Assembly: GCA_017499595.2 (NCBI GenBank)
Contig: CM038999.1
Coordinates: forward strand, 4,278,001-4,331,851
DNA: 53,851 bases
Source of the DNA: Psilocybe cubensis
Lineage: Eukaryota
Reading direction: 5' to 3'
The number at the start of each line of letters is the position of its first letter. The first letter of the stretch is position 1. Shown here in pieces: positions 23,652-53,851 of the stretch. Below the pieces are notes generated by a model, which searched no databases, had not been told where the DNA came from, and worked only from the letters and a program-made list of their open reading frames with translations. The position numbers and the translations under genes are program-made.

Positions 23652-23880
23652 AACACAATGTAACACCTACACCACAAAGCACATATTAGCCTTGGTTAGG
23701 GTTAGGGATTAGGGTTGGTAATGACCACAAAAATACAGATTAGGATGGTTTAGGGTTTAGGTTTTAGGGTTGGTTGGGATTTGATAATACCATAAAAGCA
23801 CGGATTAGGCTGGTTAGGGCTGGTTAGGGTTGGTAAATACAATTATATATGTAGCAGCTTAGGGTTGGTATGTATGTAGC
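23652..23880 (+). repeat. ~200-bp telomere-like dispersed module, copy 3
   Basis: Same module as 12019-12221, closest to copy 1. Confidence 0.85.
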
Positions 23881-25315: not shown

Positions 25316-25360
25316 GGGTTTAGGGTTTAGGGTTTAGGGTTTAGGGTTTAGGGTTTAGGG
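25316..25360 (+). repeat. Proximal TTTAGGG tract starting the terminal PLE array
   Basis: About 6 TTTAGGG units between unique DNA and the PLE 3' terminus. Confidence 0.93.
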
Positions 25361-34290: not shown

Positions 34291-35152
34291 TTAGGGTTAG
34301 GGGTTTAGGGGGGGAGCGAGCACCGAGCGAAGCGAGGTGCGAGCGACTAGTTTAAACTGGGAGTTAAAATGGAAAGAAGCCAGAGGGCTGTTGGGGGATC
34401 CCAACAACCAGCCCTTTCGTCTTTATAGACTCTTCAGTGGCTATTCTTAGAAGGAATGTTCTAGACATCCGATGACAGCGCGTGAAGTGATGCTGCGCAG
34501 CTGTCATGTATCTTACCGACTATCACAAATCTGTCAATGTTTATTGTCAAGTTAGACAGGTCTCTGATGAACAGAGTGCCACGGGTCGATGTGGCACATG
34601 GTAACCTGTCAAAAGTGGATCCAACACTTTTGTTCTTTGACATCGTGGGTTATTGACTGTGATGTGAATCACATGGATATAGATTACTCTGGTTACGTGG
34701 CTCCGAGTAACCGCGACATGGGAATATTCACATGTCTAGAGTATAAATAGCTTACCTGGGTCCTTACCTAACAATCAAACAATAGAATGATTGATTGTTG
34801 TGAATCTTAATTGGACAGTTCATGATCCGGTCCATCAAAAATGTTTCCACGGTACTAAGGAACTTTTCCCGAAGTACTAAGTAACTTTTCCCATGTACTA
34901 AATTAGATCCGGCCCTTCACAATCACATGCCGTTCGGAAGTTCACACGCCTACCTTACTTCCTACTAAGGTTAGACTTAGTTAGCTTAGGGTTGGGGTTA
35001 GGTTAGGGTTTAGGGTTTAGGGTTTAGGGTTTAGGTTTAGCTATTTAATCCAAAGTGTTGCTTGTAAGTAGATGTTTGTTACTTTATAGCAAGGGATACT
35101 TACGGTTAGGGTTTTTTTCTAATGCTTTACGCCTTACGCGCTAGTATTCTTT

Positions 35153-38100
35153 TCATCGGTTGTAAGATTTGGATATTCTGCCGAATTCTGGATGTTCCCT
35201 CTCTTGTGAGGTTGAACGTCTATGAAGTATTATCTCGTTATCACTTTCGATACTTATCTGTTCAGCAGCTTCAACTAGAGCAGAATGATAAGTTTCATTA
35301 ACGTTTTGAGTTTCGGGAACAACACCACCTTTTTCAGCGATGTTTTCATCCAGTTTACGAAAGACTGTTTTCTTCCACACATTTGCAAGGTCGAAAAGAT
35401 TAGTATTGCGCTTTCGCGATACTATCCAACGACTTCCGAGTAGTCCTATCTTCCTCAAATCCGGTACGAACTCAGTTTCTCCGTCCACGAGGATCTGTGT
35501 GAACAGCTCCGGGCGAACATCATCGAGGTCGTGAACGTAATTTGGATTTGGTTTGATAAGGGGTCTGGACGAGTCTGCACTATACAGACCTTTCTCGGCA
35601 TGTTCATACCATGCCGACCAGTACTCGGTAACAGTCTTTCCAAGTTCAGCAGCTGAAAACCAATTCCATACCTGATCAAATCTGGTTTTAAGTACAAGAA
35701 TGGATTCGTCGTGCTCTGCGACTCGTAAAGCGAATCGCTTTTCCCAACGTTCTTGTATATTCTTCTTACACCAAGACATGACTAGGTTTTCGGGATAACC
35801 GCGCATCAAATAGAGAGCGTTAAGGTCTCTAATTGCTCCGATGTAGATTTCCTTGGTACTACATAGTACGGCTAACCTGGATAACTCTCCAATGTAGACG
35901 CCACGTTTGACGTCCAAAGGATGATGTGATACCCATGGAACTCGTTCTCGGTTGTTTCCTGTCTTGACAAATGGCTTCCAATGAAGTTTTCCAGACTCCT
36001 TGAATATGAAAGCATCGAGAAATTGACATCCCGACGAGGAAACAGCCCATTCGATAACACAACCATCGAACTTTATTGTTTCTTTAATAAGATTAAGTGC
36101 AAGTGCTTCGGACTCGGCGTAAACAATTGCGAAACAATCGTCGATGTACCTTCCATAGAAGGCCACGTTTGGGTGGTCTAAGATTTTTGACTTTATTTCA
36201 AAATGGGCTCCAAAGAGGTTAGCAAGGTCCGGAGAATCCGCGACGCCCATTGCGAGGCCATTTTTTTGTCTAAAATATCTAGACCCATGTTGTGTTATCA
36301 ATTGCGTATTGCCAATCTCGATAGCACGTTTAAAGATGCCCAATTTAACCAAGTTATTCTCTAACGAATTTGGATTAATATGGGCTAATGCAGTGTTTTC
36401 TTCCGAAGCGTTGAGTAACCATTCCTCGTACATATTACAAACGATTTCGATGCACAAGTCCAACGGAATATTGGGATAGAAAGCAACTACATCCCCGGTG
36501 ACAAAATACCATTGTCGTTTGGGGTCTATACGCAATTGGCTTAATCTCGTAAAGAGATCCTTCGTTCCGTGAATGATTGAAGGAGTCGATTTAATAATCG
36601 GCTTAAGCTCTTTTGATACAAACTTGGCTGCAGGATTAAATACTACAGAGTGACACGGAATTATGGGCCTAAATCCAGTAGGTTTTTTGTGGATTTTAGG
36701 TATACCATGAAATTGAGGATACTTGAACGATGATCCGTCTTCCGGTACATTTGATAGAAAAAATCGAGACAACCCAAGTTCAAATAGAAACAGATGTTCA
36801 TCTTCGACAGTACGTGCGAGCGTTTGCATCTGAATCATTTTGCTCTTCATAACTTCTTGAGCAACTTCGAATTCTAACTCTTCGTAGTTGCGTTCATCTT
36901 CAAGAAGATTGAGCTCATTCCTTATTATCCAGTCGCGTTCAGACACCGCGAGGCCAAGATTCTTATCTGTCATCGTAATAACATAGTTGTTATCGATAAG
37001 AAACTTACGGATCTTGTCCCTTTTAGGAGAGAACGCGTGCTTTCGCATCTCCGTGAGGGCTTCTTCCGGGATACTTGCGATCGTGCGTTGCACGTACCGA
37101 CGTCCCATCGAAAGGCCAAGTTCCATATATTGCGGTAATACAGGAGGTTTTTCTTTTTTCTTAGAACTTACTCCATAATCTGGATCAAAAGGTTTATTCA
37201 TGCCTTCTTTAAACAAAAAATAGATACGCCATCTTATTCTTCGTTGAAAATCATTCCATGCTTGCATGATCAGACTTTGAGAAGGCAGTGTGAAAAACAT
37301 ATAATTTAAACCGAGAGATAAGTCGTTTGCTACATCAACCGGAACTACAACACCAGGACTACAATGTACACTAGATCTATACTGGCCAGCCAATAAGAAA
37401 GAAATTGGGGTATTGAGGTGTACAAATGAAACTGCGTCTGTTTTAGTCATGGTGAGTATATCGTCAGGAATAGAGTTGGGGAAAGCGGGTCTTACCGACG
37501 TAAAAGGTACTACATTAGACCGCGCGTTTAGGCTCTTGCCTTTCCCTTTCCCTTTGGATTGTTGTTCTTGACGGGAGCTCTCCCCTTCCCTTTCTTCTTG
37601 TTGTCGACCTTGTTGGAAGCCTTGGTTTGAGGCTTGCGTTGCGAAGGCGTCGACGACGACTTGGGTTTCGAAGGGCCAGTTTTCTTGGCCTGAGGTTGAG
37701 GAGCCTTGGACGAACTCTGGCCAGACGAAGTCTGGGTAATTAGAATAATAATTAGTATCCAAAGTTATGGGTGAAGGGTTACGAAAACCTGCCTTCTTGC
37801 CCACATATCCAAGGTTGAGCTTCTTAAGACGTGCATTCAAGCCCTTATCAATAAGGGATTGAATCGACGGACCTGGTTTGGTCGCGTCGGCCATCTCGAC
37901 ATCGGCTGTAGCCGCGGTCGACCGCTTTTTCTCAATCTTAATTGCCAAAGCGCGGTGGCGCAATTTGACAATTTGTTTGATATGAGAAAAGATAGCCGGC
38001 AGTATAGTTTGCAGCGCACTGCACTCGGCTTTCTTTTGCGGCGACGTTACCCACTCTGCTATGCGACGAACTCCCTTGTTGTCTGTAGAGAAAACGGGGA

Positions 38101-38686
38101 GCTTATAGCTGGACTTGCGGTCTTCGTAAGTTGTCTTAACGATGACCGCAGCAGCTTCATAGCAAGAAGCGAGTGCGCATTTATCCTCCCAAAAGGCCAG
38201 TTCGTCCTTTTTCGCCTGAATGGCGCCGTCGTTAATCGCCTTTTGGAAGACGTCACGAGCGGTGGAGAACGTAGTAGAGACTCGAAGAGCCTCCGCTGAC
38301 CCGGCATCCGCGAATTCCTTCGTGAGTTGGAACTCGGGAGCCTTCACCTTAAGGCGATTGGGGGTGCTGCCTGCGCTAACGGCAAGTTCAAGGCGCTCAA
38401 GGCTAGCCCTGACTGTTTCCCTCTTGTCGCACCACGATGCGAGGTTGAGGAGAAACTCCCTAAGGGCAGCGCGATAGTCAAAAAAGACGCAGTCTATTAT
38501 TTGATCAACGGAGCGGCACTCAGCTATTTTCTTGATGACCACAGTGGCCAGCTCGTCGATGAGAGCGTTTTGGCGGCCTGCTTCATCGTTGACGCCGAAG
38601 ACGGTGTTGTTGACGACGGCCTGGGTGAGTGCGTCCAGGGAGGGGGACATGGCACGAGAGAAAGCAGCAGAATATTGGGATGACAT
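35153..38686 (-). CDS. Full-length EN-less PLE reverse transcriptase (1177 aa, N-terminal ORF1-like region plus RT)
   Basis: ATG start; RT motifs GDVVAFYPNI / GLAMG / YIDD / FLD; SHHP and RGYP C-terminal motifs; no GIY-YIG. Confidence 0.95.
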   Translation of the reverse strand: MSSQYSAAFSRAMSPSLDALTQAVVNNTVFGVNDEAGRQNALIDELATVVIKKIAECRSVDQIIDCVFFDYRAALREFLLNLASWCDKRETVRASLERLELAVSAGSTPNRLKVKAPEFQLTKEFADAGSAEALRVSTTFSTARDVFQKAINDGAIQAKKDELAFWEDKCALASCYEAAAVIVKTTYEDRKSSYKLPVFSTDNKGVRRIAEWVTSPQKKAECSALQTILPAIFSHIKQIVKLRHRALAIKIEKKRSTAATADVEMADATKPGPSIQSLIDKGLNARLKKLNLGYVGKKAGFRNPSPITLDTNYYSNYPDFVWPEFVQGSSTSGQENWPFETQVVVDAFATQASNQGFQQGRQQEEREGESSRQEQQSKGKGKGKSLNARSNVVPFTSVRPAFPNSIPDDILTMTKTDAVSFVHLNTPISFLLAGQYRSSVHCSPGVVVPVDVANDLSLGLNYMFFTLPSQSLIMQAWNDFQRRIRWRIYFLFKEGMNKPFDPDYGVSSKKKEKPPVLPQYMELGLSMGRRYVQRTIASIPEEALTEMRKHAFSPKRDKIRKFLIDNNYVITMTDKNLGLAVSERDWIIRNELNLLEDERNYEELEFEVAQEVMKSKMIQMQTLARTVEDEHLFLFELGLSRFFLSNVPEDGSSFKYPQFHGIPKIHKKPTGFRPIIPCHSVVFNPAAKFVSKELKPIIKSTPSIIHGTKDLFTRLSQLRIDPKRQWYFVTGDVVAFYPNIPLDLCIEIVCNMYEEWLLNASEENTALAHINPNSLENNLVKLGIFKRAIEIGNTQLITQHGSRYFRQKNGLAMGVADSPDLANLFGAHFEIKSKILDHPNVAFYGRYIDDCFAIVYAESEALALNLIKETIKFDGCVIEWAVSSSGCQFLDAFIFKESGKLHWKPFVKTGNNRERVPWVSHHPLDVKRGVYIGELSRLAVLCSTKEIYIGAIRDLNALYLMRGYPENLVMSWCKKNIQERWEKRFALRVAEHDESILVLKTRFDQVWNWFSAAELGKTVTEYWSAWYEHAEKGLYSADSSRPLIKPNPNYVHDLDDVRPELFTQILVDGETEFVPDLRKIGLLGSRWIVSRKRNTNLFDLANVWKKTVFRKLDENIAEKGGVVPETQNVNETYHSALVEAAEQISIESDNEIILHRRSTSQEREHPEFGRISKSYNR
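37528..38686 (-). CDS. Predicted spliced ORF1 isoform (exons 38686-37793 and 37731-37528; ~365 aa with basic C-terminal tail)
   Basis: GC-AG intron at 37732-37792; stop is TAA here and TAG in the other copies. Confidence 0.6.
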
Positions 38687-38798
38687 AGTGGCTGATGGGT
38701 GATAGCAAAGTCGTTGGGTTTAGGGGGGGAGCGAGCACCGAGCGAAGCGAGGTGCGAGCGACTAGTTTAAACTGGGAGTTAAAATGGAAAGAAGCCAG

Positions 38799-38948
38799 CG
38801 GCTCGTGATTTTTTACGGGCGTGGACCAGTGCAAGCAATGGGCGCTACCGTACAGGCAAACGATCACTACATACCGCTCATGACAAAAGAGCAGGCTATT
38901 GCCTATTAAGTCCTTTACCAAGGGACACTCTCATGCCATTGGACATGG
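38799..38948 (-). ncRNA. 3'-terminal 150 nt of the group I intron, at the hammerhead insertion site; truncated and telomere-capped
   Basis: Matches 50050-50199; junction GAAGCCAG|CGGCTCGTG. Confidence 0.9.
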
Positions 38949-38967
38949 TTTTAGGGTTTAGGGTTTA

Positions 38968-41900
38968 GGGGGGGAGCGAGCACCGAGCGAAGCGAGGTGC
39001 GAGCGACTTGTTTAAACTGTGAGTTAAATGGAAAGAAGGCCAGAGGGCTGTTGATTGTTATCAGCAGCCAGCCCTTTCGTCTTTATAGACTCTTCAGTGG
39101 CTATTCTTAGAAGGAATGTTCTGGAACATCCGATGACAGCGCGTGAAGTGATGCTGCGCAGCTGTCATGTATCTTACCGACTATCACAAATCTGTCAATG
39201 TTTATTGTCAAGTTAGACAGATCTCTGATGAACAGAGTGTCACGGGTCGATGTGGCACATGGTAACCTGTCAAAAGTGGATCCAACACTTTTGTTCTTTG
39301 ACATCGTGGGTTATTGACTGTGATGTGAATCACATGGATATAAAATACTCTGGTTACGTGGCTCCGAGTAACCGTGACATGGGAATATTCTCATGTCAAG
39401 AGTATAAATAGCTTACCTGGGTCCTTACCTAACAATCAATTGATTGATTGTTGTGAATCTTAATTGGACAGTTCATGATCCGGTCCATCAAAAATGTTTC
39501 CACGGTACTAAGGAACTTTTCCCGAGGTACTAAGTAACTTTTCCCATGTACTAAATTAGATCCGGCCCTTCACAATCACATGCCTTTCGGAAGTTCACAC
39601 GCCTACCTTACTTCCTACTAAGGTTAGACTTAGTTAGCTTAGGGTTGGGGTTAGGTTAGGGCTTAGGGTTTAGGGTTTAGGGTTTAGGTTTAGGTTTAGC
39701 TATTTAATCCAATGTGTTGCTTGTAAGTAGATGTTTGTTACTTTGTAGCAAGGAATACTTACGGTTAGGGTTTTTTTCTAATGCTTTACGCCTTACGCGC
39801 TAGTATTCTTTTCATCGGTTGTAAGATTTGGATATTCTGCCGAATTCTGGATGTTCCCTCTCTTGTGAGATTGAACGTCTATGAAGTATTATCTCGTTAT
39901 CACTTTCGATACTTATCTGTTCAGCAGCTTCAACTAAAGCAGAATGATAAGTTTCATTAACGTTTTGAGTTTCGGGAACAACACCACCTTTTTCAGCGAT
40001 GTCTTCATCCAGTTTACGAAAGACTGTTTTCTTCCACACATTTGTAAGGTCGAAAAGATTAGTATTGCGTTTTCGCGATACTATCCAACGACTTCCGAGT
40101 AGTCCTATCTTCCTCAAATCCGGTACGAACTCAGTTTCTCCGTCCACGAGGATCTGTGTGAACAGCTCCGGGCGAACATCATCGAGGTCGTGAACGTAAT
40201 TTGGATCTGGTTTGATAAGGGGTCTGGACGAGTCTGCACTATACAAACCTTTCTCGGCATGTTCATACCATGCCGACCAGTACTCGGTAACAGTTTTTCC
40301 AAGTTCAGCAGCTGAAAACCAATTCCATACCTGATCAAATCTGGTTTTAAGTACAAGAATGGATTCGTCGTGCTCTGCGACTCGTAAAGCGAATCGCTTT
40401 TCCCAACGTTCTTGTATATTCTTCTTACACCAAGACATGACTAGGTTTTCGGGATAACCGCGCATCAAATAGAGAGCGTTAAGGTCTCTAATTGCTCCGA
40501 TGTAGATTTCCTTGGTACTACATAGCACGGCTAACCTGGATAACTCTCCAATGTAGACGCCACGTTTGACGTCCAAAGGATGATGTGATACCCATGGAAC
40601 TCGTTCTCGGTTGTTTCCTGTCTTGACAAATGGCTTCCAATGAAGTTTTCCAGACTCCTTGAATATGAAAGCATCGAGAAATTGACATCCCGACGAGGAA
40701 ACAGCCCATTCGATAACACAACCATCGAACTTTATTGTTTCTTTAATAAGATTAAGTGCAAGTGCTTCGGACTCGGCGTAAACAATTGCGAAACAATCGT
40801 CGATGTACCTTCCATAGAAGGCCACGTTTGGGTGGTCTAAGATTTTTGACTTTATTTCAAAATGGGCTCCAAAGAGGTTAGCAAGGTCCGGAGAATCCGC
40901 GACGCCCATTGCGAGGCCATTTTTTTGTCTAAAATATCTAGACCCATGTTGTGTTATCAATTGCGTATTGCCAATCTCGATAGCACGTTTAAAGATGCCC
41001 AATTTAACCAAGTTATTCTCTAACGAATTTGGATTAATATGGGCTAATGCAGTGTTTTCTTCCGAAGCGTTGAGTAACCATTCCTCGTACATATTACAAA
41101 CGATTTCGATGCACAAGTCCAACGGAATATTGGGATAGAAAGCAACTACATCCCCGGTGACAAAATACCATTGTCGTTTGGGGTCTATACGCAATTGGCT
41201 TAATCTCGTAAAGAGATCCTTCGTTCCGTGAATGATTGAAGGAGTCGATTTAATAATCGGCTTAAGCTCTTTTGATACAAACTTGGCTGCAGGATTAAAT
41301 ACTACAGAGTGACACGGAATTATGGGTCTAAATCCAGTAGGTTTTTTGTGGATTTTAGGTATACCATGAAATTGAGGATACTTGAACGATGATCCGTCTT
41401 CCGGTACATTCGATAGAAAGAATCGAGACAACCCAAGTTCAAATAGAAACAGATGTTCATCTTCGACGGTACGTGCAAGAGTTTGCATCTGGATCATTTT
41501 GCTCTTCATTACTTCTTGCGCAACTTCGAATTCTAACTCTTCATAGTTACGTTCATCTTCAAGAAGATTGAGCTCATTCCTTAATATCCAGTCGCGTTCA
41601 GACACCGCGAGGCCAAGATTCTTATCTGTCATCGTAATAACATAGTTGTTATCGATAAGAAACTTACGGATCTTGTCCCTTTTAGGAGAGAACGCGTGCT
41701 TTCGCATCTCCGTAAGGGCTTCTTCCGGGATACTTGCGATCGTGCGTTGCACGTACCGACGTCCCATCGAAAGGCCAAGTTCCATGTATTGCGGTAATAC
41801 TGGAGGTTTCTCTTTCTTTTTTGAGCTTACTCCGTAATCTGGATCAAAAGGTTTGTTCATGCCTTCCTTAAACAAAAAATAGATACGCCATCTTATTCTT

Positions 41901-44071
41901 CGTTGAAAATCATTCCATGCTTGCATGATCAGACTTTGAGAAGGCAGAGTAAAAAACATATAATTGAGTCCGAGTGACAAATCATTTGCTATATCTACAG
42001 GGACCACCACACCAGGACTACAGTGTACACTACTACGATACTGGCCAGCCAACAAGAATGAGATCGGCGTATGTAAGTGTACAAAAGAAACTGCGTCTGT
42101 TTTAGTCATGGTGAGTATATCGTCAGGAATAGAGTTGGGGAAGGCGGGTCTTACCGACGTAAAAGGTACTACATTAGACCGCGCGTCTAGGCTCTTGCCT
42201 TTCCCTTTCCCTTTGGATCGTTCTTGACGGGAGCTCTCCCCTTCCCTTTCTTCTTGTTGTCGACCTTGTTGGAAGCCTTGGTTTGGGGCTTCTTCTGCGA
42301 AGGCGTCGACGAGGGTTTGAATTTCGAAGGGCCAGCTTTCTTGGCCTGAGGTTGAGGAGCCTTGGACGAATTCTGGCCAGACAAAGTCTGGGTAATTAGA
42401 ATAGTAATTAGTATCCAGAATTATGGGTGAAGGGTTACGAGAACTTGCCTTCTTGCCCACAGATCCAAGGTTGAGCTTCTTGAGACGTGCATTCAAGCCC
42501 TTATCAATAAGGGATTGAATCGATGGACCTGGTTTGGTCGCATCGGCCATCTCGACATCGGCTGTTGCCGCAGTCGACCGCTTTTTCTCAATCTTGATTG
42601 CCAAAGCGCGGTGGCGCAAGTTGACAATCTGTTTGATATGAGAGAAGATGGCTGGCAAAATGGTTTGCAATGCGCTGCATTCAGCCTTCTTCTGCGGTGA
42701 CACTACCCAATCTGTTATTCGACGAACTCCCTTGTTGTCTGTAGAGAAAACGGGGAGCTTATAGCTGGATTTGCGATCATCGTAAGTTGTCTTAACGATG
42801 AGGGCAGCAGCTTCATAACAGTTATTGAGTGCGCATTTATCATCCCAAAAGGCCAGTTCGTCCTTTTTCGCCTGAATGGCGCCGTCGTTGATTGCCTTTT
42901 GGAAGACATCACGAGCGGTGGAGAACGTAGAGGAAACTCGAAGAGCTTCCGCTGACCCGGCATCCGCGAATTCCTTCGTAAGTTGGAACTCGGGAGCCTT
43001 CACCCGAAGGCGATTGGGGGTGTTGCCTGCGCTAACGGCAAGTTCAAGGCGCTCGAGGCTAGCCTTGACTGTTTCCCTCTTATCGCACCACGATGCGAGG
43101 TTGAGGAGAAACTCCCTAAGGGCAGCACGATAGTCAAAAAAGACGCAGTCTACAATCTGGTCAATGGAGCGGCACTCAGCTATTTTCTTGATGACGACAG
43201 TGGCCAACTCGTCGATGAGGGCGTTGTGGCGGCCAGCTTCGTCGTTGACGCCAAAAACTGTGTTGTTGACGACAGCCTGGGTGAGTGCGTCCAGGGTGGG
43301 GGACATGGCACGAGAGAAGGCAGCAGAGTAAGTGGAAGACATAGTAGCTGTTGGGTAATAGCAAAGTCGTTGGGTTTAGGGGGGGAGCGAGCACCGAGCG
43401 AAGCGAGGTGCGAGCGACTTGTTTAAACTGTGAGTTAAATGGAAAGAAGGCCAGAGGGCTGTTGATTGTTATCAGCAGCCAGCCCTTTCGTCTTTATAGA
43501 CTCTTCAGTGGCTATTCTTAGAAGGAATGTTCTGGAACATCCGATGACAGCGCGTGAAGTGATGCTGCGCAGCTGTCATGTATCTTACCGACTATCACAA
43601 ATCTGTCAATGTTTATTGTCAAGTTAGACAGATCTCTGATGAACAGAGTGTCACGGGTCGATGTGGCACATGGTAACCTGTCAAAAGTGGATCCAACACT
43701 TTTGTTCTTTGACATCGTGGGTTATTGACTGTGATGTGAATCACATGGATATAAAATACTCTGGTTACGTGGCTCCGAGTAACCGTGACATGGGAATATT
43801 CTCATGTCAAGAGTATAAATAGCTTACCTGGGTCCTTACCTAACAATCAATTGATTGATTGTTGTGAATCTTAATTGGACAGTTCATGATCCGGTCCATC
43901 AAAAATGTTTCCACGGTACTAAGGAACTTTTCCCGAGGTACTAAGTAACTTTTCCCATGTACTAAATTAGATCCGGCCCTTCACAATCACATGCCGTTCG
44001 GAAGTTCACACGCCTACCTTACTTCCTACTAAGGTTAGACTTAGTTAGCTTAGGGTTGGGGTTAGGTTAGG
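38968..44071 (-). mobile_element. PLE unit 8, full-length with a second upstream pLTR (43372-44071); hammerheads at 39039-39101 and 43450-43512
   Basis: Both pLTRs share private variants (GACTTGTTT, TTGATTGTTATC, GATCTCTG, TAAAATACTC, CCGTGAC, TCTCATGTCAAG). Confidence 0.95.
39812..43342 (-). CDS. Full-length EN-less PLE reverse transcriptase (1176 aa); GC-AG intron at 42388-42448
   Basis: Same motifs as 35153-38686. Confidence 0.95.
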   Translation of the reverse strand: MSSTYSAAFSRAMSPTLDALTQAVVNNTVFGVNDEAGRHNALIDELATVVIKKIAECRSIDQIVDCVFFDYRAALREFLLNLASWCDKRETVKASLERLELAVSAGNTPNRLRVKAPEFQLTKEFADAGSAEALRVSSTFSTARDVFQKAINDGAIQAKKDELAFWDDKCALNNCYEAAALIVKTTYDDRKSSYKLPVFSTDNKGVRRITDWVVSPQKKAECSALQTILPAIFSHIKQIVNLRHRALAIKIEKKRSTAATADVEMADATKPGPSIQSLIDKGLNARLKKLNLGSVGKKASSRNPSPIILDTNYYSNYPDFVWPEFVQGSSTSGQESWPFEIQTLVDAFAEEAPNQGFQQGRQQEEREGESSRQERSKGKGKGKSLDARSNVVPFTSVRPAFPNSIPDDILTMTKTDAVSFVHLHTPISFLLAGQYRSSVHCSPGVVVPVDIANDLSLGLNYMFFTLPSQSLIMQAWNDFQRRIRWRIYFLFKEGMNKPFDPDYGVSSKKKEKPPVLPQYMELGLSMGRRYVQRTIASIPEEALTEMRKHAFSPKRDKIRKFLIDNNYVITMTDKNLGLAVSERDWILRNELNLLEDERNYEELEFEVAQEVMKSKMIQMQTLARTVEDEHLFLFELGLSRFFLSNVPEDGSSFKYPQFHGIPKIHKKPTGFRPIIPCHSVVFNPAAKFVSKELKPIIKSTPSIIHGTKDLFTRLSQLRIDPKRQWYFVTGDVVAFYPNIPLDLCIEIVCNMYEEWLLNASEENTALAHINPNSLENNLVKLGIFKRAIEIGNTQLITQHGSRYFRQKNGLAMGVADSPDLANLFGAHFEIKSKILDHPNVAFYGRYIDDCFAIVYAESEALALNLIKETIKFDGCVIEWAVSSSGCQFLDAFIFKESGKLHWKPFVKTGNNRERVPWVSHHPLDVKRGVYIGELSRLAVLCSTKEIYIGAIRDLNALYLMRGYPENLVMSWCKKNIQERWEKRFALRVAEHDESILVLKTRFDQVWNWFSAAELGKTVTEYWSAWYEHAEKGLYSADSSRPLIKPDPNYVHDLDDVRPELFTQILVDGETEFVPDLRKIGLLGSRWIVSRKRNTNLFDLTNVWKKTVFRKLDEDIAEKGGVVPETQNVNETYHSALVEAAEQISIESDNEIILHRRSISQEREHPEFGRISKSYNR

Positions 44072-44097
44072 GTTTAGGGTTTAGGGTTTAGGGTTTA

Positions 44098-45365
44098 GGG
44101 GGGGAGCGAGCACCGAGCGAAGCGAGGTGCGAGCGACTAGTTTAAACTGTGAGTTTGAAATAGAAAGAAGGCCAGAGGGCTGTTGGGGGATCCCAACAAC
44201 CAGCCCTTTCGTCTTTATAGACTCTTCAGTGGCTATTCTTAGAAGGAATGTTCTAGACATCCGATGACAGCGCGTGAAGTGATGCTGCGCAGCTGTCATG
44301 TATCTTACCGACTATCACAAATCTGTCAATGTTTATTGTCAAGTTAGACAGGTCTCTGATGAACAGAGTGTCACGGGTCGATGTGGCACATGGTAACCTG
44401 TCAAAAGTGGATCCAACACTTTTGTTCTTTGACATCGTGGGTTATTGACTGTGATGTGAATCACATGGATATAGATTACTCTGGTTACGTGGCTCCGAGT
44501 AACCGCGACATGGGAATATTCACATGTCTAGAGTATAAATAGCTTACCTGGGTCCTTACCTAACAATCAAACAATAGAATGATTGATTGTTGTGAATCTT
44601 AATTGGACAGTTCATGATCCGGTCCATCAAAAATGTTTCCACGGTACTAAGGAACTTTTCCCGAAGTACTAAGTAACTTTTCCCATGTACTAAATTAGAT
44701 CCGGCCCTTCACAATCACATGCCGTTCGGAAGTTCACACGCCTACCTTACTTCCTACTAAGGTTAGACTTAGTTAGCTTAGGGTTGGGGTTAGGTTAGGG
44801 TTTAGGGTTTAGGGTTTAGGGTTTAGGTTTAGCTATTTAATCCAAAGTGTTGCTTGTAAGTAGATGTTTGTTACTTTATAGCAAGGAATACTTACGGTTA
44901 GGGTTTTTTTCTAATGCTTTACGCCTTACGCGCTAGTATTCTTTTCATCGGTTGTAAGATTTGGATATTCTGCCGAATTCTGGATGTTCCCTCTCTTGTG
45001 AGATTGAACGTCTATGAAGTATTATCTCGTTATCACTTTCGATACTTATCTGTTCAGCAGCTTCAACTAGAGCAGAATGATAAGTTTCATTAACGTTTTG
45101 AGTTTCGGGAACAACACCACCTTTTTCAGCAATGTTTTCATCCAGTTTACGAAAGACTGTTTTCTTCCACACATTTGCAAGGTCGAAAAGATTAGTATTG
45201 CGCTTTCGCGATACTATCCAACGACTTCCGAGTAGTCCTATCTTCCTCAAATCCGGTACGAACTCAGTTTCTCCGTCCACGAGGATCTGTGTGAACAGCT
45301 CCGGGCGAACATCATCGAGGTCGTGAACGTAATTTGGATCTGGTTTGATAAGGGGTCTGGACGAG
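44098..45365 (-). mobile_element. PLE unit 9, 5'-truncated (ORF tail 44945-45365); hammerhead at 44171-44233
   Basis: pLTR plus ORF tail; only GGGTTA separates it from the next unit. Confidence 0.92.
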
Positions 45366-45507: not shown

Positions 45508-46401
45508 TAGGGTTTAGGGTTTTAGGGTTTAGGGTTTAGGGTTTAGGGTTTAGGGGGGGAGCGAGCACCGAGCGAAGCGAGGTGCGAGCGACTAGTTTAA
45601 ACTGTGAGTTTGAAATAGAAAGAAGGCCAGAGGGCTGTTGGGGGATCCCAACAACCAGCCCTTTCGTCTTTATAGACTCTTCAGTGGCTATTCTTAGAAG
45701 GAATGTTCTAGACATCCGATGACAGCGCGTGAAGTGATGCTGCGCAGCTGTCATGTATCTTACCGACTATCACAAATCTGTCAATGTTTATTGTCAAGTT
45801 AGACAGGTCTCTGATGAACAGAGTGTCACGGGTCGATGTGGCACATGGTAACCTGTCAAAAGTGGATCCAACACTTTTGTTCTTTGACATCGTGGGTTAT
45901 TGACTGTGATGTGAATCACATGGATATAGATTACTCTGGTTACGTGGCTCCGAGTAACCGCGACATGGGAATATTCACATGTCTAGAGTATAAATAGCTT
46001 ACCTGGGTCCTTACCTAACAATCAAACAATAGAATGATTGATTGTTGTGAATCTTAATTGGACAGTTCATGATCCGGTCCATCAAAAATGTTTCCACGGT
46101 ACTAAGGAACTTTTCCCGAAGTACTAAGTAACTTTTCCCATGTACTAAATTAGATCCGGCCCTTCACAATCACATGCCGTTCGGAAGTTCACACGCCTAC
46201 CTTACTTCCTACTAAGGTTAGACTTAGTTAGCTTAGGGTTGGGGTTAGGTTAGGGTTTAGGGTTTAGGGTTTAGGGTTTAGGTTTAGCTATTTAATCCAA
46301 AGTGTTGCTTGTAAGTAGATGTTTGTTACTTTATAGCAAGGAATACTTACGGTTAGGGTTTTTTTTCCCAATGCTTTACGCCTTACGCGCTAGTATTCTT
46401 T

Positions 46402-49400
46402 TCATCGGTTGTAAGATTTGGATATTCTGCCGAATTCTGGATGTTCCCTCTCTTGTGAGATTGAACGTCTATGAAGTATTATCTCGTTATCACTTTCGAT
46501 ACTTATCTGTTCAGCAGCTTCAACTAGAGCAGAATGATAAGTTTCATTAACGTTTTGAGTTTCGGGAACAACACCACCTTTTTCAGCGATGTTTTCATCC
46601 AGTTTACGAAAGACTGTTTTCTTCCACACATTTGCAAGGTCGAAAAGATTAGTATTGCGCTTTCGCGATACTATCCAACGACTTCCGAGTAGTCCTATCT
46701 TCCTCAAATCCGGTACGAACTCAGTTTCTCCGTCCACGAGGATCTGTGTGAACAGCTCCGGGCGAACATCATCGAGGTCGTGAACGTAATTTGGATCTGG
46801 TTTGATAAGGGGTCTGGACGAGTCTGCACTATACAGACCTTTCTCGGCATGTTCATACCATGCCGACCAGTACTCGGTAACAGTCTTTCCAAGTTCAGCA
46901 GCTGAAAACCAATTCCATACCTGATCAAATCTGGTTTTAAGTACAAGAATGGATTCGTCGTGCTCTGCGACTCGTAAAGCGAATCGCTTTTCCCAACGTT
47001 CTTGTATATTCTTCTTACACCAAGACATGACTAGGTTTTCGGGATAACCGCGCATCAAATAGAGAGCGTTAAGGTCTCTAATTGCTCCGATGTAGATTTC
47101 CTTGGTACTACATAGCACGGCTAACCTGGATAACTCTCCAATGTAGACGCCACGTTTGACGTCCAAAGGATGATGTGATACCCATGGAACTCGTTCTCGG
47201 TTGTTTCCTGTCTTGACAAATGGCTTCCAATGAAGTTTTCCAGACTCCTTGAATATGAAAGCATCGAGAAATTGACATCCCGACGAGGAAACAGCCCATT
47301 CGATAACACAACCATCGAACTTTATTGTTTCTTTAATAAGATTAAGTGCAAGTGCTTCGGACTCGGCGTAAACAATTGCGAAACAATCGTCGATGTACCT
47401 TCCATAGAAGGCCACGTTTGGGTGGTCTAAGATTTTTGACTTTATTTCAAAATGGGCTCCAAAGAGGTTAGCAAGGTCCGGAGAATCCGCGACGCCCATT
47501 GCGAGGCCATTTTTTTGTCTAAAATATCTAGACCCATGTTGTGTTATCAATTGCGTATTGCCAATCTCGATAGCACGTTTAAAGATGCCCAATTTAACCA
47601 AGTTATTCTCTAACGAATTTGGATTAATATGGGCTAATGCAGTGTTCTCTTCCGAAGCGTTGAGTAACCATTCCTCGTACATATTACAAACGATTTCGAT
47701 GCACAAGTCCAACGGAATATTGGGATAGAAAGCAACTACATCCCCGGTGACAAAATACCATTGTCGTTTGGGGTCTATACGCAATTGGCTTAATCTCGTA
47801 AAGAGATCCTTCGTTCCGTGAATGATTGAAGGAGTCGATTTAATAATCGGCTTAAGCTCTTTTGATACAAACTTGGCTGCAGGATTAAATACTACAGAGT
47901 GACACGGAATTATGGGCCTAAATCCAGTAGGTTTCTTGTGGATTTTAGGTATACCATGAAATTGAGGATACTTGAACGATGATCCGTCTTCCGGTACATT
48001 CGATAGAAAGAATCGAGACAACCCAAGTTCAAATAGAAACAGATGTTCATCTTCGACGGTACGTGCGAGAGTTTGCATCTGAATCATTTTGCTCTTCATA
48101 ACTTCTTGCGCAACTTCGAATTCTAACTCTTCGTAGTTGCGTTCATCTTCAAGAAGATTGAGCTCATTCCTTAATATCCAGTCGCGTTCAGACACCGCGA
48201 GGCCAAGATTCTTATCTGTCATCGTAATAACATAGTTGTTATCGAAAAGAAACTTTTGGATCTTGTCTCTTTTAGGAGAGAACGCGTGCTTTCGCATCTC
48301 TTTAAGGGCTTCTTCCGGGATACTTGCGATCGTTTTAATAACGTACCGACGTCCCATTGAAAGGCCAAGTTCCATAAATTGCGGTAACATTGGAGGTTTC
48401 TCTTTCTTTTTAGAGCTTACTCCATAGTCTGGATCGAAAGGTTTATTCATGCCTTCTTTAAACAAAAAATAGATACGCCATCTTATTCTTCGTTGAAAAT
48501 CATTCCATGCTTGCATGATCAGATTTTTAGAAGGCAGTGTAAAAAACATATAATTGAGTCCAAGAGATAAATCATTTGCTACATCAACAGGGACCGAAAC
48601 ACCAGGACTACAGTGTACACTAGATCTATACTGGCCAGCCAATAAGAATGAAATCGGGGTATTGAGGTGTACAAAAGAAACTGCGTCTGTTTTAGTCATG
48701 GTGAGTATATCGTCAGGAATAGAGTTGGGGAAGGCGGGTCTCACCGACGTAAATGATGCTACAGTAGACCGCGCGTCTAGGCTCTTGCCTTTCCCTTTCC
48801 CTTTGGATCGTTGTTCTTGACGGGAGCTCTCCCCTTCCCTTTCTTCTTGTTGTCGACCTTGTTGGAAGCCTTGGTTTGAGGCTTCCTCTGCGAAGGCGTC
48901 GACGACGACTTGGGTTTCGAAGGGCCAGCTTTCCTGGCCTGAGGTTGAGGAGCCTTGGACGAATTCTGGCCAGACAAAGTCTGGGTAATTAGAGTAATAA
49001 TTAGTGTCCAGAATTATGGGTGAAGGGTTACGAAAACTTGCCTTCTTGCCCACAGATCCAAGGTTGAGCTTTTTGAGACGTGCATTCAAGCCCTTATCAA
49101 TAAGGGATTGAATCGATGGACCTGGTTTGGTCGCATCGGCCATCTCGACATCGGCTGTTGCCGCAGTCGTCCGCTTTTTCTCAATCTTAATTGCCAAGGC
49201 GCGGTGGCGCATGTTGACAATCTGTTTGATATGAGAAAAGATCGCCGGCAGTATAGTTTGCAGCGCACTGCATTCGGCTTTCTTTTGCGGAGACACTACC
49301 CACTCTGCTATACGTCGAACTCCCTTGTTGTCTGTAGAGAAAACAGGGAGCTTGTAGCTGGATTTGCGATCATCGTAAGTTGCCTTAACGATGAGGGCAG

Positions 49401-49935
49401 CAGCTTCGTAGCAAGAGTTGAGCGCGCATTTATCATCCCAAAAAGCCAGCTCGTCCTTTTTCGCCTGAACGGCGCCGTCGTTAATTGCCTTTTGGAAGGC
49501 ATCACGAGCGGAAGAGAACGTAGTGGAGACTCGAAGAGCCTCCGCTGACCCGGCATCCGCGAATTCCTTCGTAAGTTGGAACTCGGGTGCCTTCACCTTA
49601 AGGCGATTGGGCGTGTTGCCTGCGCTAACGGCAGATTCAAGGCGCTCGAGGCTAGCCTTGACTGTTTCCCTCTTGTCGCACCACGATGCGAGGTTGAGGA
49701 GAAACTCCCTGAGGGCAGCACGATAGTCAAAAAAGACGCAGTCTATGACTTGGTCAACGGAGCGGCACTCAGCTATTTTTTTGATGACCACAGTGGCCAG
49801 CTCGTCGATAAGAGCGTTATGGCGGCCTGCTTCATCGTTGACGCCGAAGACAGTGTTGTTGACGACGGCCTGGGTGAGTGCGTCCAGGGTAGGGGACATG
49901 GCACGAGAGAATGCAGCAGAGTATTGGGATGACAT
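46402..49935 (-). CDS. Full-length EN-less PLE reverse transcriptase (1177 aa); GC-AG intron at 48981-49041, in-frame GT-AG intron at 46524-46577
   Basis: Same motifs as 35153-38686. Confidence 0.95.
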   Translation of the reverse strand: MSSQYSAAFSRAMSPTLDALTQAVVNNTVFGVNDEAGRHNALIDELATVVIKKIAECRSVDQVIDCVFFDYRAALREFLLNLASWCDKRETVKASLERLESAVSAGNTPNRLKVKAPEFQLTKEFADAGSAEALRVSTTFSSARDAFQKAINDGAVQAKKDELAFWDDKCALNSCYEAAALIVKATYDDRKSSYKLPVFSTDNKGVRRIAEWVVSPQKKAECSALQTILPAIFSHIKQIVNMRHRALAIKIEKKRTTAATADVEMADATKPGPSIQSLIDKGLNARLKKLNLGSVGKKASFRNPSPIILDTNYYSNYPDFVWPEFVQGSSTSGQESWPFETQVVVDAFAEEASNQGFQQGRQQEEREGESSRQEQRSKGKGKGKSLDARSTVASFTSVRPAFPNSIPDDILTMTKTDAVSFVHLNTPISFLLAGQYRSSVHCSPGVSVPVDVANDLSLGLNYMFFTLPSKNLIMQAWNDFQRRIRWRIYFLFKEGMNKPFDPDYGVSSKKKEKPPMLPQFMELGLSMGRRYVIKTIASIPEEALKEMRKHAFSPKRDKIQKFLFDNNYVITMTDKNLGLAVSERDWILRNELNLLEDERNYEELEFEVAQEVMKSKMIQMQTLARTVEDEHLFLFELGLSRFFLSNVPEDGSSFKYPQFHGIPKIHKKPTGFRPIIPCHSVVFNPAAKFVSKELKPIIKSTPSIIHGTKDLFTRLSQLRIDPKRQWYFVTGDVVAFYPNIPLDLCIEIVCNMYEEWLLNASEENTALAHINPNSLENNLVKLGIFKRAIEIGNTQLITQHGSRYFRQKNGLAMGVADSPDLANLFGAHFEIKSKILDHPNVAFYGRYIDDCFAIVYAESEALALNLIKETIKFDGCVIEWAVSSSGCQFLDAFIFKESGKLHWKPFVKTGNNRERVPWVSHHPLDVKRGVYIGELSRLAVLCSTKEIYIGAIRDLNALYLMRGYPENLVMSWCKKNIQERWEKRFALRVAEHDESILVLKTRFDQVWNWFSAAELGKTVTEYWSAWYEHAEKGLYSADSSRPLIKPDPNYVHDLDDVRPELFTQILVDGETEFVPDLRKIGLLGSRWIVSRKRNTNLFDLANVWKKTVFRKLDENIAEKGGVVPETQNVNETYHSALVEAAEQISIESDNEIILHRRSISQEREHPEFGRISKSYNR
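48777..49935 (-). CDS. Predicted spliced ORF1 isoform (exons 49935-49042 and 48980-48777; 365 aa ending ...KKKGKGRAPVKNNDPKGKGKARA*)
   Basis: 894-nt exon 1 plus 204-nt exon 2, in frame after removal of the 61-nt GC-AG intron. Confidence 0.6.
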
Positions 49936-50044
49936 GGTAACTGATGGGTGATAGCAAAGTCGTTGGGTTTAGGGGGGGAGCGAGCACCGAGCGAAGCGAG
50001 GTGCGAGCGACTAGTTTAAACTGTGAGTTTGAAATAGAAAGAAG

Positions 50045-51036
50045 GCCAGCGGCTCGTGATTTTTTACGGGCGTGGACCAGTGCAAGCAATGGGCGCTACC
50101 GTACAGGCAAACGATCACTACATACCGCTCATGACAAAAGAGCAGGCTATTGCCTATTAAGTCCTTTACCAAGGGACACTCTCATGCCATTGGACATGGC
50201 AGGCTAATACCCTTTAAGCCCTTTACCAAGGGGCGCCACATCAGCCATTACAGCCACAGGTTCATTTCCGGCGACGAACTATTTGTCCATCCTTGTGTTA
50301 ACTCCCTTTACTAAGGGGAGGCCGGGTCACCCGCGTTTTAAGCGGTTCTGGACTTCGGGCCGTCCTCGTAAGCAGCGAGGCGCGGTTTAGATACCAGATG
50401 TGGGTTTCCCCACTCCCAAGACTATATCTTAAGATCCGAAGACCCCACTACCACCTAGTCGTTGAACGCTTCCGTCGGCGTGACCGTTACGGATTCGCTG
50501 CTGATTATCCATTCCAGCTTTCGCTGAATCTTGGGGATTGTTACCATACCCGGTCGCCACCGGTGCCTAGGCTGTTTCCAGCGGTCGGCGGTACCCACAA
50601 GCTTTAGGACGTCCCAGCAATTCGGTAGTGTCGCCGGCTGCAACCGACTTGCCAGGAGCGTATCCAGCAGAGCTGGTCCTGACAACCCCCAGTGTACTCT
50701 CACCTGATGTCCATACCCATTGAAGAACTGCGCGCCCTCGAATTACAAAGTCATCATAGCTGGATATCCCCGCAGCTAGACTAAAACGAGTTTGTATGAC
50801 CTCCGTAACCCAACATAGAAGGCGTGAGCGAGTGAAAGAAAAAGGGCCCCGCTTGCCGTGAGGCAGCCAACATGTCGATGAAACGTCCCCGAGTCAAGGG
50901 CAAGATCAGTGACGAAAGGGCTCCCGGATGAGTTGGGAAGGCACAAGCGGCAGGAGTTTGGGAGAGGACGAGTACTTGAGGGCTGTTGGGGGATCCCAAC
51001 AACCAGCCCTTTCGTCTTTATAGACTCTTCAGTGGC
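50045..51036 (-). ncRNA. Hammerhead ribozyme split by the group I intron (halves 51036-50979 and 50049-50045)
   Basis: Removing 50050-50978 restores exactly GCCAG|AGGGCTG as in intact copies. Confidence 0.88.
50050..50978 (-). ncRNA. Group I intron (IC1-like), 929 nt, no homing endonuclease, inserted in the hammerhead core
   Basis: 5' exon ends in U and intron ends in G; IGS GGGGUUGU 50682-50689; P AAUUGCUGGGA 50612-50622; Q AAUCAGCAGC 50497-50506; R GUUCAACGACUAG 50455-50467; S AAGAUAUAGUC 50420-50430; P3 CACUACC/GGUAGUG; P8 UUCG and P9 GAAA loops. Confidence 0.93.
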
Positions 51037-51702
51037 TATTCTTAGAAGGAATGTTCTAGACATCCGATGACAGCGCGTGAAGTGATGCTGCGCAGCTGTC
51101 ATGTATCTTACCGACTATCACAAATCTGTCAATGTTTATTGTCAAGTTAGACAGGTCTCTGATGAACAGAGTGTCACGGGTCGATGTGGCACATGGTAAC
51201 CTGTCAAAAGTGGATCCAACACTTTTGTTCTTTGACATCGTGGGTTATTGACTGTGATGTGAATCACATGGATATAGATTACTCTGGTTACGTGGCTCCG
51301 AGTAACCGCGACATGGGAATATTCACATGTCTAGAGTATAAATAGCTTACCTGGGTCCTTACCTAACAATCAAACAATAGAATGATTGATTGTTGTGAAT
51401 CTTAATTGGACAGTTCATGATCCGGTCCATCAAAAATGTTTCCACGGTACTAAGGAACTTTTCCCGAAGTACTAAGTAACTTTTCCCATGTACTAAATTA
51501 GATCCGGCCCTTCACAATCACATGCCGTTCGGAAGTTCACACGCCTACCTTACTTCCTACTAAGGTTAGACTTAGTTAGCTTAGGGTTGGGGTTAGGTTA
51601 GGGTTTAGGGTTTAGGGTTTAGGGTTTAGGTTTAGCTATTTAATCCAAAGTGTTGCTTGTAAGTAGATGTTTGTTACTTTATAGCAAGGAATACTTACGG
51701 TT

Positions 51703-52631
51703 CGGCTCGTGATTTTTTACGGGCGTGGACCAGTGCAAGCAATGGGCGCTACCGTACAGGCAAACGATCACTACATACCGCTCATGACAAAAGAGCAGGC
51801 TATTGCCTATTAAGTCCTTTACCAAGGGACACTCTCATGCCATTGGACATGGCAGGCTAATACCCTTTAAGCCCTTTACCAAGGGGCGCCACATCAGCCA
51901 TTACAGCCACAGGTTCATTTCCGGCGACGAACTATTTGTCCATCCTTGTGTTAACTCCCTTTACTAAGGGGAGGCCGGGTCACCCGCGTTTTAAGCGGTT
52001 CTGGACTTCGGGCCGTCCTCGTAAGCAGCGAGGCGCGGTTTAGATACCAGATGTGGGTTTCCCCACTCCCAAGACTATATCTTAAGATCCGAAGACCCCA
52101 CTACCACCTAGTCGTTGAACGCTTCCGTCGGCGTGACCGTTACGGATTCGCTGCTGATTATCCATTCCAGCTTTCGCTGAATCTTGGGGATTGTTACCAT
52201 ACCCGGTCGCCACCGGTGCCTAGGCTGTTTCCAGCGGTCGGCGGTACCCACAAGCTTTAGGACGTCCCAGCAATTCGGTAGTGTCGCCGGCTGCAACCGA
52301 CTTGCCAGGAGCGTATCCAGCAGAGCTGGTCCTGACAACCCCCAGTGTACTCTCACCTGATGTCCATACCCATTGAAGAACTGCGCGCCCTCGAATTACA
52401 AAGTCATCATAGCTGGATATCCCCGCAGCTAGACTAAAACGAGTTTGTATGACCTCCGTAACCCAACATAGAAGGCGTGAGCGAGTGAAAGAAAAAGGGC
52501 CCCGCTTGCCGTGAGGCAGCCAACATGTCGATGAAACGTCCCCGAGTCAAGGGCAAGATCAGTGACGAAAGGGCTCCCGGATGAGTTGGGAAGGCACAAG
52601 CGGCAGGAGTTTGGGAGAGGACGAGTACTTG
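51703..52631 (-). ncRNA. Second full copy of the 929-nt group I intron, inserted at AAAACCCU|AACCG in the 3' UTR
   Basis: Appears identical to 50050-50978 (offset 1653); removal restores TTACGGTT|AGGGTTTTTT with no target duplication. Confidence 0.93.
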
Positions 52632-52865
52632 AGGGTTTTTTTTCCAATGCTTTACGCCTTACGCGCTAGTATTCTTTTCATCGGTTGTAAGATTTGGATA
52701 TTCTGCCGAATTCTGGATGTTCCCTCTCTTGTGAGATTGAACGTCTATGAAGTATTATCTCGTTATCACTTTCGATACTTATCTGTTCAGCAGCTTCAAC
52801 TTTTTCAGCGATGTTTAGGGTTTAGGGTTTAGGGTTTAGGGTTTAGGGTTTAGGGTTTAGGTTTA

Positions 52866-53654
52866 GGGGGGGAGCGAGCACCGAGCGAAGCGAGGTGCGA
52901 GCGACTAGTTTAAACTGGGAGTTAAATGGAAAGTAGCCAGAGGGCTGTTGGGGGATCCCAACAACCAGCCCTTTCGTCTTTATAGACTCTTCAGTGGCTA
53001 TTCTTAGAAGGAATGTTCTAGACATCCGATGACAGCGCGTGAAGTGATGCTGCGCAGCTGTCATGTATCTTACCGACTATCACAAATCTGTCAATGTTTA
53101 TTGTCAAGTTAGACAGGTCTCTGATGAACAGAGTGTCACGGGTCGATGTGGCACATGGTAACCTGTCAAAAGTGGATCCAACACTTTTGTTCTTTGACAT
53201 CGTGGGTTATTGACTGTGATGTGAATCACATGGATATAGATTACTCTGGTTACGTGGCTCCGAGTAACCGCGACATGGGAATATTCACATGTCTAGAGTA
53301 TAAATAGCTTACCTGGGTCCTTACCTAACAATCAAACAATAGAATGATTGATTGTTGTGAATCTTAATTGGACAGTTCATGATCCGGTCCATCAAAAATG
53401 TTTCCACGGTACTAAGGAACTTTTCCCGAAGTACTAAGTAACTTTTCCCATGTACTAAATTAGATCCGGCCCTTCACAATCACATGCCGTTCGGAAGTTC
53501 ACACGCCTACCTTACTTCCTACTAAGGTTAGACTTAGTTAGCTTAGGGTTGGGGTTAGGTTAGGGTTTAGGGTTTAGGGTTTAGGGTTTAGGTTTAGCTA
53601 TTTAATCCAAAGTGTTGCTTGTAAGTAGATGTTTGTTACTTTATAGCAAGGAAT
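52866..53654 (-). mobile_element. PLE unit 12, pLTR-only, most distal; hammerhead at 52936-52998
   Basis: pLTR truncated at GCAAGGAAT and capped by the terminal telomere. Confidence 0.93.
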
Positions 53655-53851
53655 TTTAGGGTTTAGGGTTTAGGGTTTTAGGGTTTAGGGTTTAGGGTTT
53701 AGGGTTTAGGGTTTAGGGTTTAGGGTTTAGGGTTTAGGGTTTAGGGTTTAGGGTTTAGGGTTTAGGGTTTAGGGTTTAGGGTTTAGGGTTTAGGGTTTAG
53801 GGTTTAGGGTTTAGGGTTTAGGGTTTAGGGTTTAGGGTTTAGGGTTTAGGG
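53655..53851 (+). repeat. Terminal telomeric tract (TTTAGGG)n, G-strand on +, chromosome end
   Basis: About 28 near-perfect TTTAGGG units run to the end of the window, with a few TTTTAGGG/TTTAGGGG variants. Confidence 0.97.

Follow-up and report, generated by a model that had tools for sequence, protein, structure and literature searches.

Group I introns of nuclear genomes are described as confined to ribosomal DNA (PMC3679873, PMC8395846, PMC9223047). Reverse splicing of group I ribozymes into RNA, including that by full-length circles, is known in vitro, in yeast and in E. coli, and by the account given in PMC3679873 the complete pathway from reverse splicing through reverse transcription to integration has never been shown, the experimental evidence for the reverse transcription and integration steps of rDNA introns being described there as 'still lacking'. 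For fungal rDNA, ectopic spread by reverse splicing has been explained by pairing of the intron guide with the exon, as argued from trees in PMC1299323. A second body of work concerns the endonuclease-less Penelope-like elements, which PMC8557442 describes as telomeric, with a telomere complement at the 3′ end, an adjacent hammerhead ribozyme, 5′ truncation and partial tandem arrangements. Such elements keep introns after retrotransposition, and those described in that source are spliceosomal. In the literature searched we found no report of group I introns in Penelope-like elements, in telomeric retroelements or in Psilocybe.

The DNA described here, referred to as the window, is the whole 53,851-nt stretch of Psilocybe cubensis contig CM038999.1 from position 4,278,001 to 4,331,851. 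It contains a group I intron of the same ribozyme class as Tetrahymena Tth.L1925 and Didymium Dir.S956-1, in which the P1 helix between guide and exon decides the site. Unlike the nuclear rDNA introns, it resides in a telomeric retrotransposon, so that the host RNA is itself a template for a reverse transcriptase (RT). The host resembles the Athena and Coprina elements of PMC8557442 in being attached to telomeres, in its hammerhead, in its 5′ truncations and in its pLTR tandems, but the intron that it retains is a group I intron, whereas those of Athena and Coprina elements as described there are spliceosomal.

The last 53 kb of the window is occupied by an array of 15 head-to-tail copies, all in the same orientation, of a single 4409-nt unit whose sense strand is the minus strand. 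Each copy begins on the plus strand at the same base (GGGGAGCGAGC...) following a short TTTAGGG run, and the copies differ in length; three are full-length (34311-38715, 38971-43371 and 45556-49964). A common 3′ end placed after telomere repeats, combined with variable 5′ truncation, is the signature of end-primed reverse transcription, and the host is propagated in this manner at the chromosome end. The components at the distal end of the array are as follows.

45556..49964, minus strand: element copy 13, full-length at 4409 nt, with both intron sites empty
46402-49935, minus strand: RT open reading frame of copy 13, 1177 aa, with YIDD
49975..52813, minus strand: element copy 14, 5′-truncated at about unit position 982 and carrying both introns
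53655..53851, plus strand: terminal (TTTAGGG)n array, more than 25 repeats at the window end

Copy 14 adjoins copy 13 on its upstream side in the sense direction, the pLTR position, and when its introns are removed it is 98.7-99.9% identical to copy 13. A CCAATGC variant at about 52640-52647 sets copy 14 apart. The same (TTTAGGG)n telomere repeat is given for a related agaric, Stropharia rugosoannulata, in PMC8874372.

Penelope-like RTs are marked by a DK-x motif upstream of the RT core, and those of the endonuclease-less type have no GIY-YIG domain. The 1177-aa protein contains TDKN and YIDD motifs, and its nearest named relatives are Psilocybe cubensis proteins with 98-99% identity. Searches of the full 1177-aa reading frames against Pfam returned no family and no match to GIY-YIG; RVT_1 scored 26-27 bits on truncated copies, below its 29.6-bit cut-off. 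A PDB profile search with the RT alignment matched nothing, and the Atlas look-alikes, which serve as a lead only, are RT clusters of Basidiomycota and Rotifera. The host is probably an endonuclease-less Penelope-like element, the family of its protein being placed by the telomeric, hammerhead and tandem features rather than by comparison with reference proteins. The features that it has in common with Athena and Coprina are its chromosome-end location, the telomere complement at its 3′ end, the adjacent hammerhead and the 5′-truncated head-to-tail copies.

The junctions within the array are of two types. All three full-length copies are followed by an identical 10-nt spacer of the GGTTTAGGG type (38716-38725, 43372-43381 and 49965-49974), and the other junctions consist of 1-60 nt of telomere repeat. 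The constant spacer points to end-to-end jumps between templates, the RNA jumped onto having a 3′ tail of exactly C7UAAACCC. Each spacer joins a full-length copy to a truncated copy lying upstream of it in the sense direction (38726-38948, 43382-44099 and 49975-52813), an arrangement of truncated copy, spacer and full copy that is the partial-tandem (pLTR) form typical of Penelope-like elements; the flank haplotype of each pLTR copy is also that of the main copy in its unit. Interstitial telomere repeats reach as far in as 1463-1490, and the roughly 19 kb between element arrays (6346-25360) contains only short open reading frames under the bacterial code.

Two full-length group I cores are recognized on the minus strand by the Rfam model RF00028, with a score of 70.9 bits (gathering score 50; E 4.7e-16) and an alignment spanning the full model from 1 to 253. 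They belong to two intron copies that are identical at 929 of 929 nt, and there is in addition a remnant of a third.

51703..52631, minus strand: intron copy at site 2, 929 nt, sense CAAGUA...GAGCCG, with flanks ...AAAAAACCCU and AACCGUAAG...
50050..50978, minus strand: intron copy at site 1, the home site, with flanks ...CAACAGCCCU and CUGGCC...
38799..38948, minus strand: third intron copy, at site 1, in which nt 780-929 remain and are 100% identical (BLAST against the window)

The boundaries of the inserted unit can be read from uninterrupted sites in the same window. Site 2 in its unfilled form (ACGGTT|AGGGTTTT on the plus strand) occurs at nine places and unfilled site 1 (GGCCAG|AGGGCTG, plus strand) at 13, so that the inserted unit is exactly CAAGUA...GAGCCG and both insertions are exact. 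At both, a U precedes the intron, the intron ends in the terminal omega-G, and target-site duplication is absent; the insertion at site 2 brought no site-1 exon sequence along with it. Site 1 lies 75 nt from the 3′ end of the unit and is occupied in two of the 15 copies. Occupation of site 2, which is 47 nt past the stop codon and 799 nt from the 3′ end, is confined to one of the ten element copies long enough to include it. Both full introns are found in copy 14, which implies that a single reverse-transcribed RNA carried the two of them. The third copy is broken inside the intron at nt 780 and continues as (TTTAGGG)3 at 38950; such a telomere-capped break indicates that unspliced, intron-bearing RNA is reverse-transcribed. 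For two haplotypes, the same site-1 flank haplotype is present both filled and empty within a unit, from which it follows that exact gain or loss has happened more than once. A simple segmental duplication of the site-1 copy was considered and rejected, as the flanks of the two sites differ from the first base on both sides. Also rejected was a NUMT or other mitochondrial origin, the intron having 57% G+C, a nuclear-type core and exact boundaries inside the element.

These observations agree with a sequence-only reading of the locus, which had described a group I intron with an identical second copy, with exact ends lacking target-site duplication or co-conversion, inserted on the sense strand within the RNA of a Penelope-like element; each of these statements is upheld by the Rfam score, the sequence identity, the boundaries and the empty sites. 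Its further proposal of spread without a homing endonuclease finds support in the intron itself, which has no homing endonuclease reading frame: the longest frames overlapping it measure 69-82 aa, and none matches a Pfam family at E<=0.1. The sequence-only reading had overlooked the hammerhead core at the home site, the truncated third copy, the location of both full introns in one retro-copied unit, the homologous intron of a distant element family, and the large distance between guide and 5′ splice site.

The catalytic core and the peripheral parts of the intron are arranged as follows.

52051..52347, minus strand: catalytic core P2-P9 of the site-2 copy, intron nt 285-581, from the Rfam alignment
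50398-50694, minus strand: catalytic core of the site-1 copy, from Rfam
51703..52050, minus strand: 348-nt extension past P9, intron nt 582-929
51854-51892 and 51794-51832, minus strand: two copies of a conserved 39-nt two-hairpin motif within the post-P9 extension
52335..52344, minus strand: internal guide sequence, intron nt 288-297, UG GGGGUU GU
52345..52629, minus strand: arm of about 280 nt in the P1 loop, intron nt 3-287, with no open reading frame of note
52632..52637, minus strand: site-2 5′ exon hexamer AACCCU (AGGGTT on the plus strand), pairing with GGGGUU

The core elements are P3 (CACUACC/GGUAGUG), P7 with the guanosine site (GACUA/UAGUC), J8/7 (AAGAUAUAGUC) and a P9 with a GAAA loop, accompanied by a GAAA-looped insertion of about 100 nt at P5, a pair of hairpins ahead of P3 and the long P9 extension. 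Subgroup IC1, the nuclear type, is defined by P2/P2.1, an extended P5abc and P9 extensions, and the core with its long GAAA-looped P5 insertion looks IC1-like. The minimum free energy of the whole intron is not unusual (z -1.39). The intron is presumably capable of self-splicing; the signs of this are indirect, namely a core poor in polymorphism and flank haplotypes that occur both filled and empty.

Scanning the intron for the best partner of the 5′ exon, with Watson-Crick and G.U pairs permitted, gives the same top position, G290, for both sites. The guide lies in the context ...CUGGGGGUUGU, read as ...ACACUG-G-GGGUUGUC, directly 5′ of P2, and the same nucleotides (290-297) serve both 5′ exons. 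The predicted P1 has eight exon pairs plus two intron pairs at site 1 and six exon pairs plus two intron pairs at site 2, and at both sites the U before the splice site pairs with G290. The same P1 is formed in the minimum free energy fold, where it is extended into the arm of about 280 nt; it is because of this arm that the guide lies some 290 nt from the 5′ splice site. The two sites have in common only CCCU and the purines that pair with the guide, and there is no homology on the 3′ side. The sequence RRCCCU is found at ten positions in the 4409-nt sense unit (three in the open reading frame, site 2, five in a telomere-like stretch, and site 1), so that a match at a random position has p ~0.002.

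Pairing with the guide does not by itself account for which sites are filled. In the window, seven of the ten guide matches have no intron in any copy (eight of the ten in the reference copy, in which site 2 is empty). The five internal telomere-like AACCCU sites have the highest predicted accessibility (probability unpaired 0.43-0.76) and are always empty, and the corresponding values are 0.08 for site 2 and about 0 for site 1, which is buried in stem III of the hammerhead. Since accessible guide matches are left empty, guide pairing together with accessibility does not predict the choice of site. The sequence-only reading was correct that AACCCU pairs with the guide GGGGUU, this being the intron's best partner with six exon pairs, and that complementarity to the guide is all that the two sites have in common. 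It erred in calling the second site telomere-like, for site 2 is a fixed part of the element 3′ UTR and not telomere, and its suggestion that telomeric-repeat RNA could be a target is not supported: among 105 sense-strand AACCCTAAA sites not one is occupied, nor is any of the five internal AACCCU sites.

The home site lies within a second ribozyme. Located 75 nt from the 3′ end of the unit is a predicted type I hammerhead of the form AGCCA CUGAAGA GUCUAUAAAGAC GAAA, stem III, UC^UGGCU, and the parts that concern the intron are these.

52935..52999, minus strand: intact hammerhead in the last element copy, site 1 empty, from core motifs, covariation and Rfam
50979..51037, minus strand: 5′ part of the hammerhead split by the site-1 intron, from core motifs and covariation
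50044-50049, minus strand: hammerhead C17 and the 3′ strand of stem I, on the far side of the site-1 intron

The Rfam match (RAGATH-1-HHR, in a single copy only) scores 29.1 bits against a gathering score of 56.3, and as this is below threshold the assignment is built on motifs and covariation. The core motifs CUGANGA, GAAA and UH are present in 13 of the 13 intact copies in the window and in relatives; stem I covaries (AGCCA/UGGCU, AGCUA/UAGCU, AGCAA/UUGCU and ACUUG/CAAGU), as does stem II. The segment 50979..51037 holds the 5′ strand of stem I, CUGAAGA, stem II, GAAA and stem III up to U16.1. Site 1 therefore falls between U16.1 and C17, 1 nt before the predicted cleavage position.

Relatives of the element were sought in metagenome contigs scanned with the protein alignment, which gave 30 loci, and an intron in the same type of location is found in a distant family with 28-32% RT identity to ours. 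One locus of this family, L027, has a full group I intron scoring 57 bits; in another, L024, the contig ends within the intron (39.6 bits, E 3.8e-07); and a third, L026, has an empty site at 5291|5292 that defines the L027 intron as 1139 nt long, at 452-1590. The L027 boundaries are CAAGUU|CAAAC...GCUUG|UUCAU, again with a U before the intron and a G at its end, and lie 6 nt past the hammerhead cleavage position of that family. Comparison of the L027 and window intron cores shows compensatory changes in 18 of 60 predicted pairs. The L027 guide AGUUUGA aligns with GGGGGUU of the window intron and forms 7 bp with its own exon, the apparent splice-site pair being U-A in place of U.G, or else the site is displaced by 1 nt within the U-run. 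In L024, L026 and L027 the intron lies upstream of the open reading frame, beside the hammerhead, and L026 also includes a copy truncated within the intron, like the third copy in the window, and so again shows reverse transcription through an intron. The fold energy of the L027 5′ region has a z of +1.23. With a homologous intron present in a distant family, the link between this intron lineage and the hammerhead region of such elements must be old or recurrent.

The raw DNA reads analysed are those of two runs (X17 and X18) labelled as another species. Intron depth in these is about 0.15 and 0.08 of that of flanking element sequence, and among the loose ends listed at intron termini the flanks are those of site 1. 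Site 2 is empty in 392 and 486 reads, a filled site-2 junction is not detectable in the two runs with the other species label, and the filled junction for this reason rests on the present assembly. Run X17 contains nine DNA reads, with seven start positions, in which the omega-G is joined directly to intron nt 1; run X18 has no such head-to-tail junction. Since the guide reads only the 5′ exon, reverse splicing of a second intron at a site already filled would give an exact junction of this type, and it indicates either tandem introns or copied full-length circles, which a DNA endonuclease route does not predict. The reads also bear on constraint: 27 of 28 listed polymorphic positions spare the 297-nt core (Fisher p 0.0003; counting one diverged cluster once, 0.004), the sole core variant among those listed converts a P8 G.U pair to G-C, and it is the P1-loop arm (nt 3-287) that holds most of the variation among related strains. 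The location of the variants mostly outside the core suggests selection on the catalytic core. The single 205-nt contig from RNA run X13 is intronless; as empty copies would yield an identical transcript, the contig is no evidence that the intron is expressed or spliced.

The best reading of the site-2 copy, and probably the correct one, is reverse splicing followed by reverse transcription by the retroelement. The resident would be a 929-nt nuclear-type group I intron, lacking an endonuclease gene, in the 3′ UTR of a telomere-attached element, with its home site in the hammerhead core between U16.1 and C17. Free intron RNA, either linear or as a full-length circle, would pair GGGGUU with AACCCU in another element RNA and reverse-splice after the U at site 2, and the element's own RT would then copy the doubly-introned, unspliced RNA onto the chromosome end, yielding copy 14. 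The two parts of this proposal, which the sequence-only reading had also made, differ in standing: reverse transcription of the host and of intron-bearing RNA is shown by the array, and we infer the reverse-splicing step itself from the footprint at site 2. Support for the mechanism is limited to a single ectopic insertion event, and copy 14 could be descended from an older doubly-introned master, in which case the insertion might have happened at another time or place. The more general proposition has, we judge, an even chance of being right; it holds that the intron spreads free of an endonuclease by reverse-splicing into element RNA, that a telomerase-like RT writes the copies into chromosome ends, and that the window has caught a fresh event.

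Other processes could produce a second intron copy, and three of them, template switching, DNA-level insertion and an assembly artefact, are even jointly an unlikely source of the copy at site 2. An RT that at site 2 switched to a free intron RNA as template, read it from one end to the other and then returned to the element RNA would draw on a habit that Penelope-like elements have, as they make partial tandems, and the fixed 10-nt spacer after all three full-length copies fits end-to-end jumps. Exit and return at adjacent nucleotides without loss or gain is nonetheless improbable, and such jumps predict neither the U at -1 nor the 6-bp guide match. An excised linear group I intron carries an added guanosine, and its copying would be expected to leave an extra base; the 5′ junction here has no such base, which speaks against the copying of such a molecule and, by extension, is not something that template switching predicts. 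We regard this route as quite unlikely. Still more doubtful is insertion at the DNA level, whether by an endonuclease encoded in trans or by break repair at site 2 from intron DNA or cDNA. Homing is the established route of group I mobility (PMC3679873), but the intron has no endonuclease frame, the two sites match over only 4-6 nt whereas nuclear His-Cys enzymes are stated in the same source to need 15-20 bp, and the site-2 insertion has neither homology on its 3′ side for repair nor a co-converted flank. That the copy was created by mis-joining of repeats is scarcely credible: the region is highly repetitive and the filled junction is unconfirmed in the two raw-read runs, yet a mis-join would not hit U| and G| exactly with both flanks continuing perfectly, nor would it hit one of the ten guide-matching positions in 4409 nt.

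A further possibility concerns the function of the intron at its home site, where in the pLTR hammerhead it might block self-cleavage until it is spliced, the site-2 copy being a by-product of this working module. The hammerhead core is interrupted by the intron 1 nt away from the predicted point of cleavage; site-1 introns are found in two of three copies in the pLTR position versus none of 12 other copies (p ~0.03); the introns of L024, L026 and L027 have a corresponding position; and the 39-nt motif is 92% conserved across the two intron lineages. Set against these are the 13 of 15 copies in the window that have no intron and the closer metagenome relatives (L001-L023), among which a group I intron scored in none of the 23, although the numbers are small. 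As a full account of the locus we think this rather unlikely. A hammerhead-switch role is however compatible with reverse splicing and reverse transcription, as an addition to that explanation and not as a replacement for it.

If reverse splicing followed by reverse transcription is correct, this would be the first case in which the whole RNA-level pathway of group I mobility has been caught in nature, and a precise copy at a second, guide-matching site is the genomic footprint long predicted for RNA-level intron spread. Since the RNA of the intron's host is naturally reverse-transcribed and added to the genome, the missing steps of the pathway come free. The window offers an identical donor and recipient, empty alleles and an RT stop within the intron, and with these there is a homologous intron in a distant family; the events reconstructed from trees in PMC1299323, by contrast, are old, whereas donor and recipient are here identical and 725 nt apart with empty alleles alongside. 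An old hypothesis thereby becomes open to simple experiments, as the fungus can be cultured. The two selfish elements would moreover form an alliance of a new kind, one ribozyme (group I) being lodged inside another (the hammerhead), which might serve as a ribozyme-within-ribozyme switch in the processing of the element.

Group II introns, which insert into DNA, bring a reverse transcriptase of their own. The scheme proposed here resembles group II retrohoming in its reverse-splicing ribozyme, its copying by an RT and its targeting by base pairing, and differs in that a group I intron with no coding content would enter RNA and rely on the enzyme of its host element.

Several observations on the relatives are recorded here. 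The 39-nt motif has the form GYCC-CUUGGUAAA-GGRC, linker, RGGY-ANUA-GCCU, and is present in L027 (731-769 and 1519-1557), L024 (609-647) and L026 (1308-1346); the cores of the two intron lineages are far more diverged than the motif, one stem pair of which covaries from C-G to U-A. No Rfam family scored at the motif, which might be a protein-binding or tertiary-contact module. L026 has a similar sequence of about 30 nt (AAT..AATGAAGATCA.CTCTCAGTTATC) on both flanks of the element (~990-1027 and 5392-5420) and no telomere repeats, and its family may insert at an internal repeated target. The 3′ ends of L004-L019 carry complements of the CCCTAA type and that of the window element CCCTAAA; the 3′ tail of the element tracks the telomere repeat of its host.
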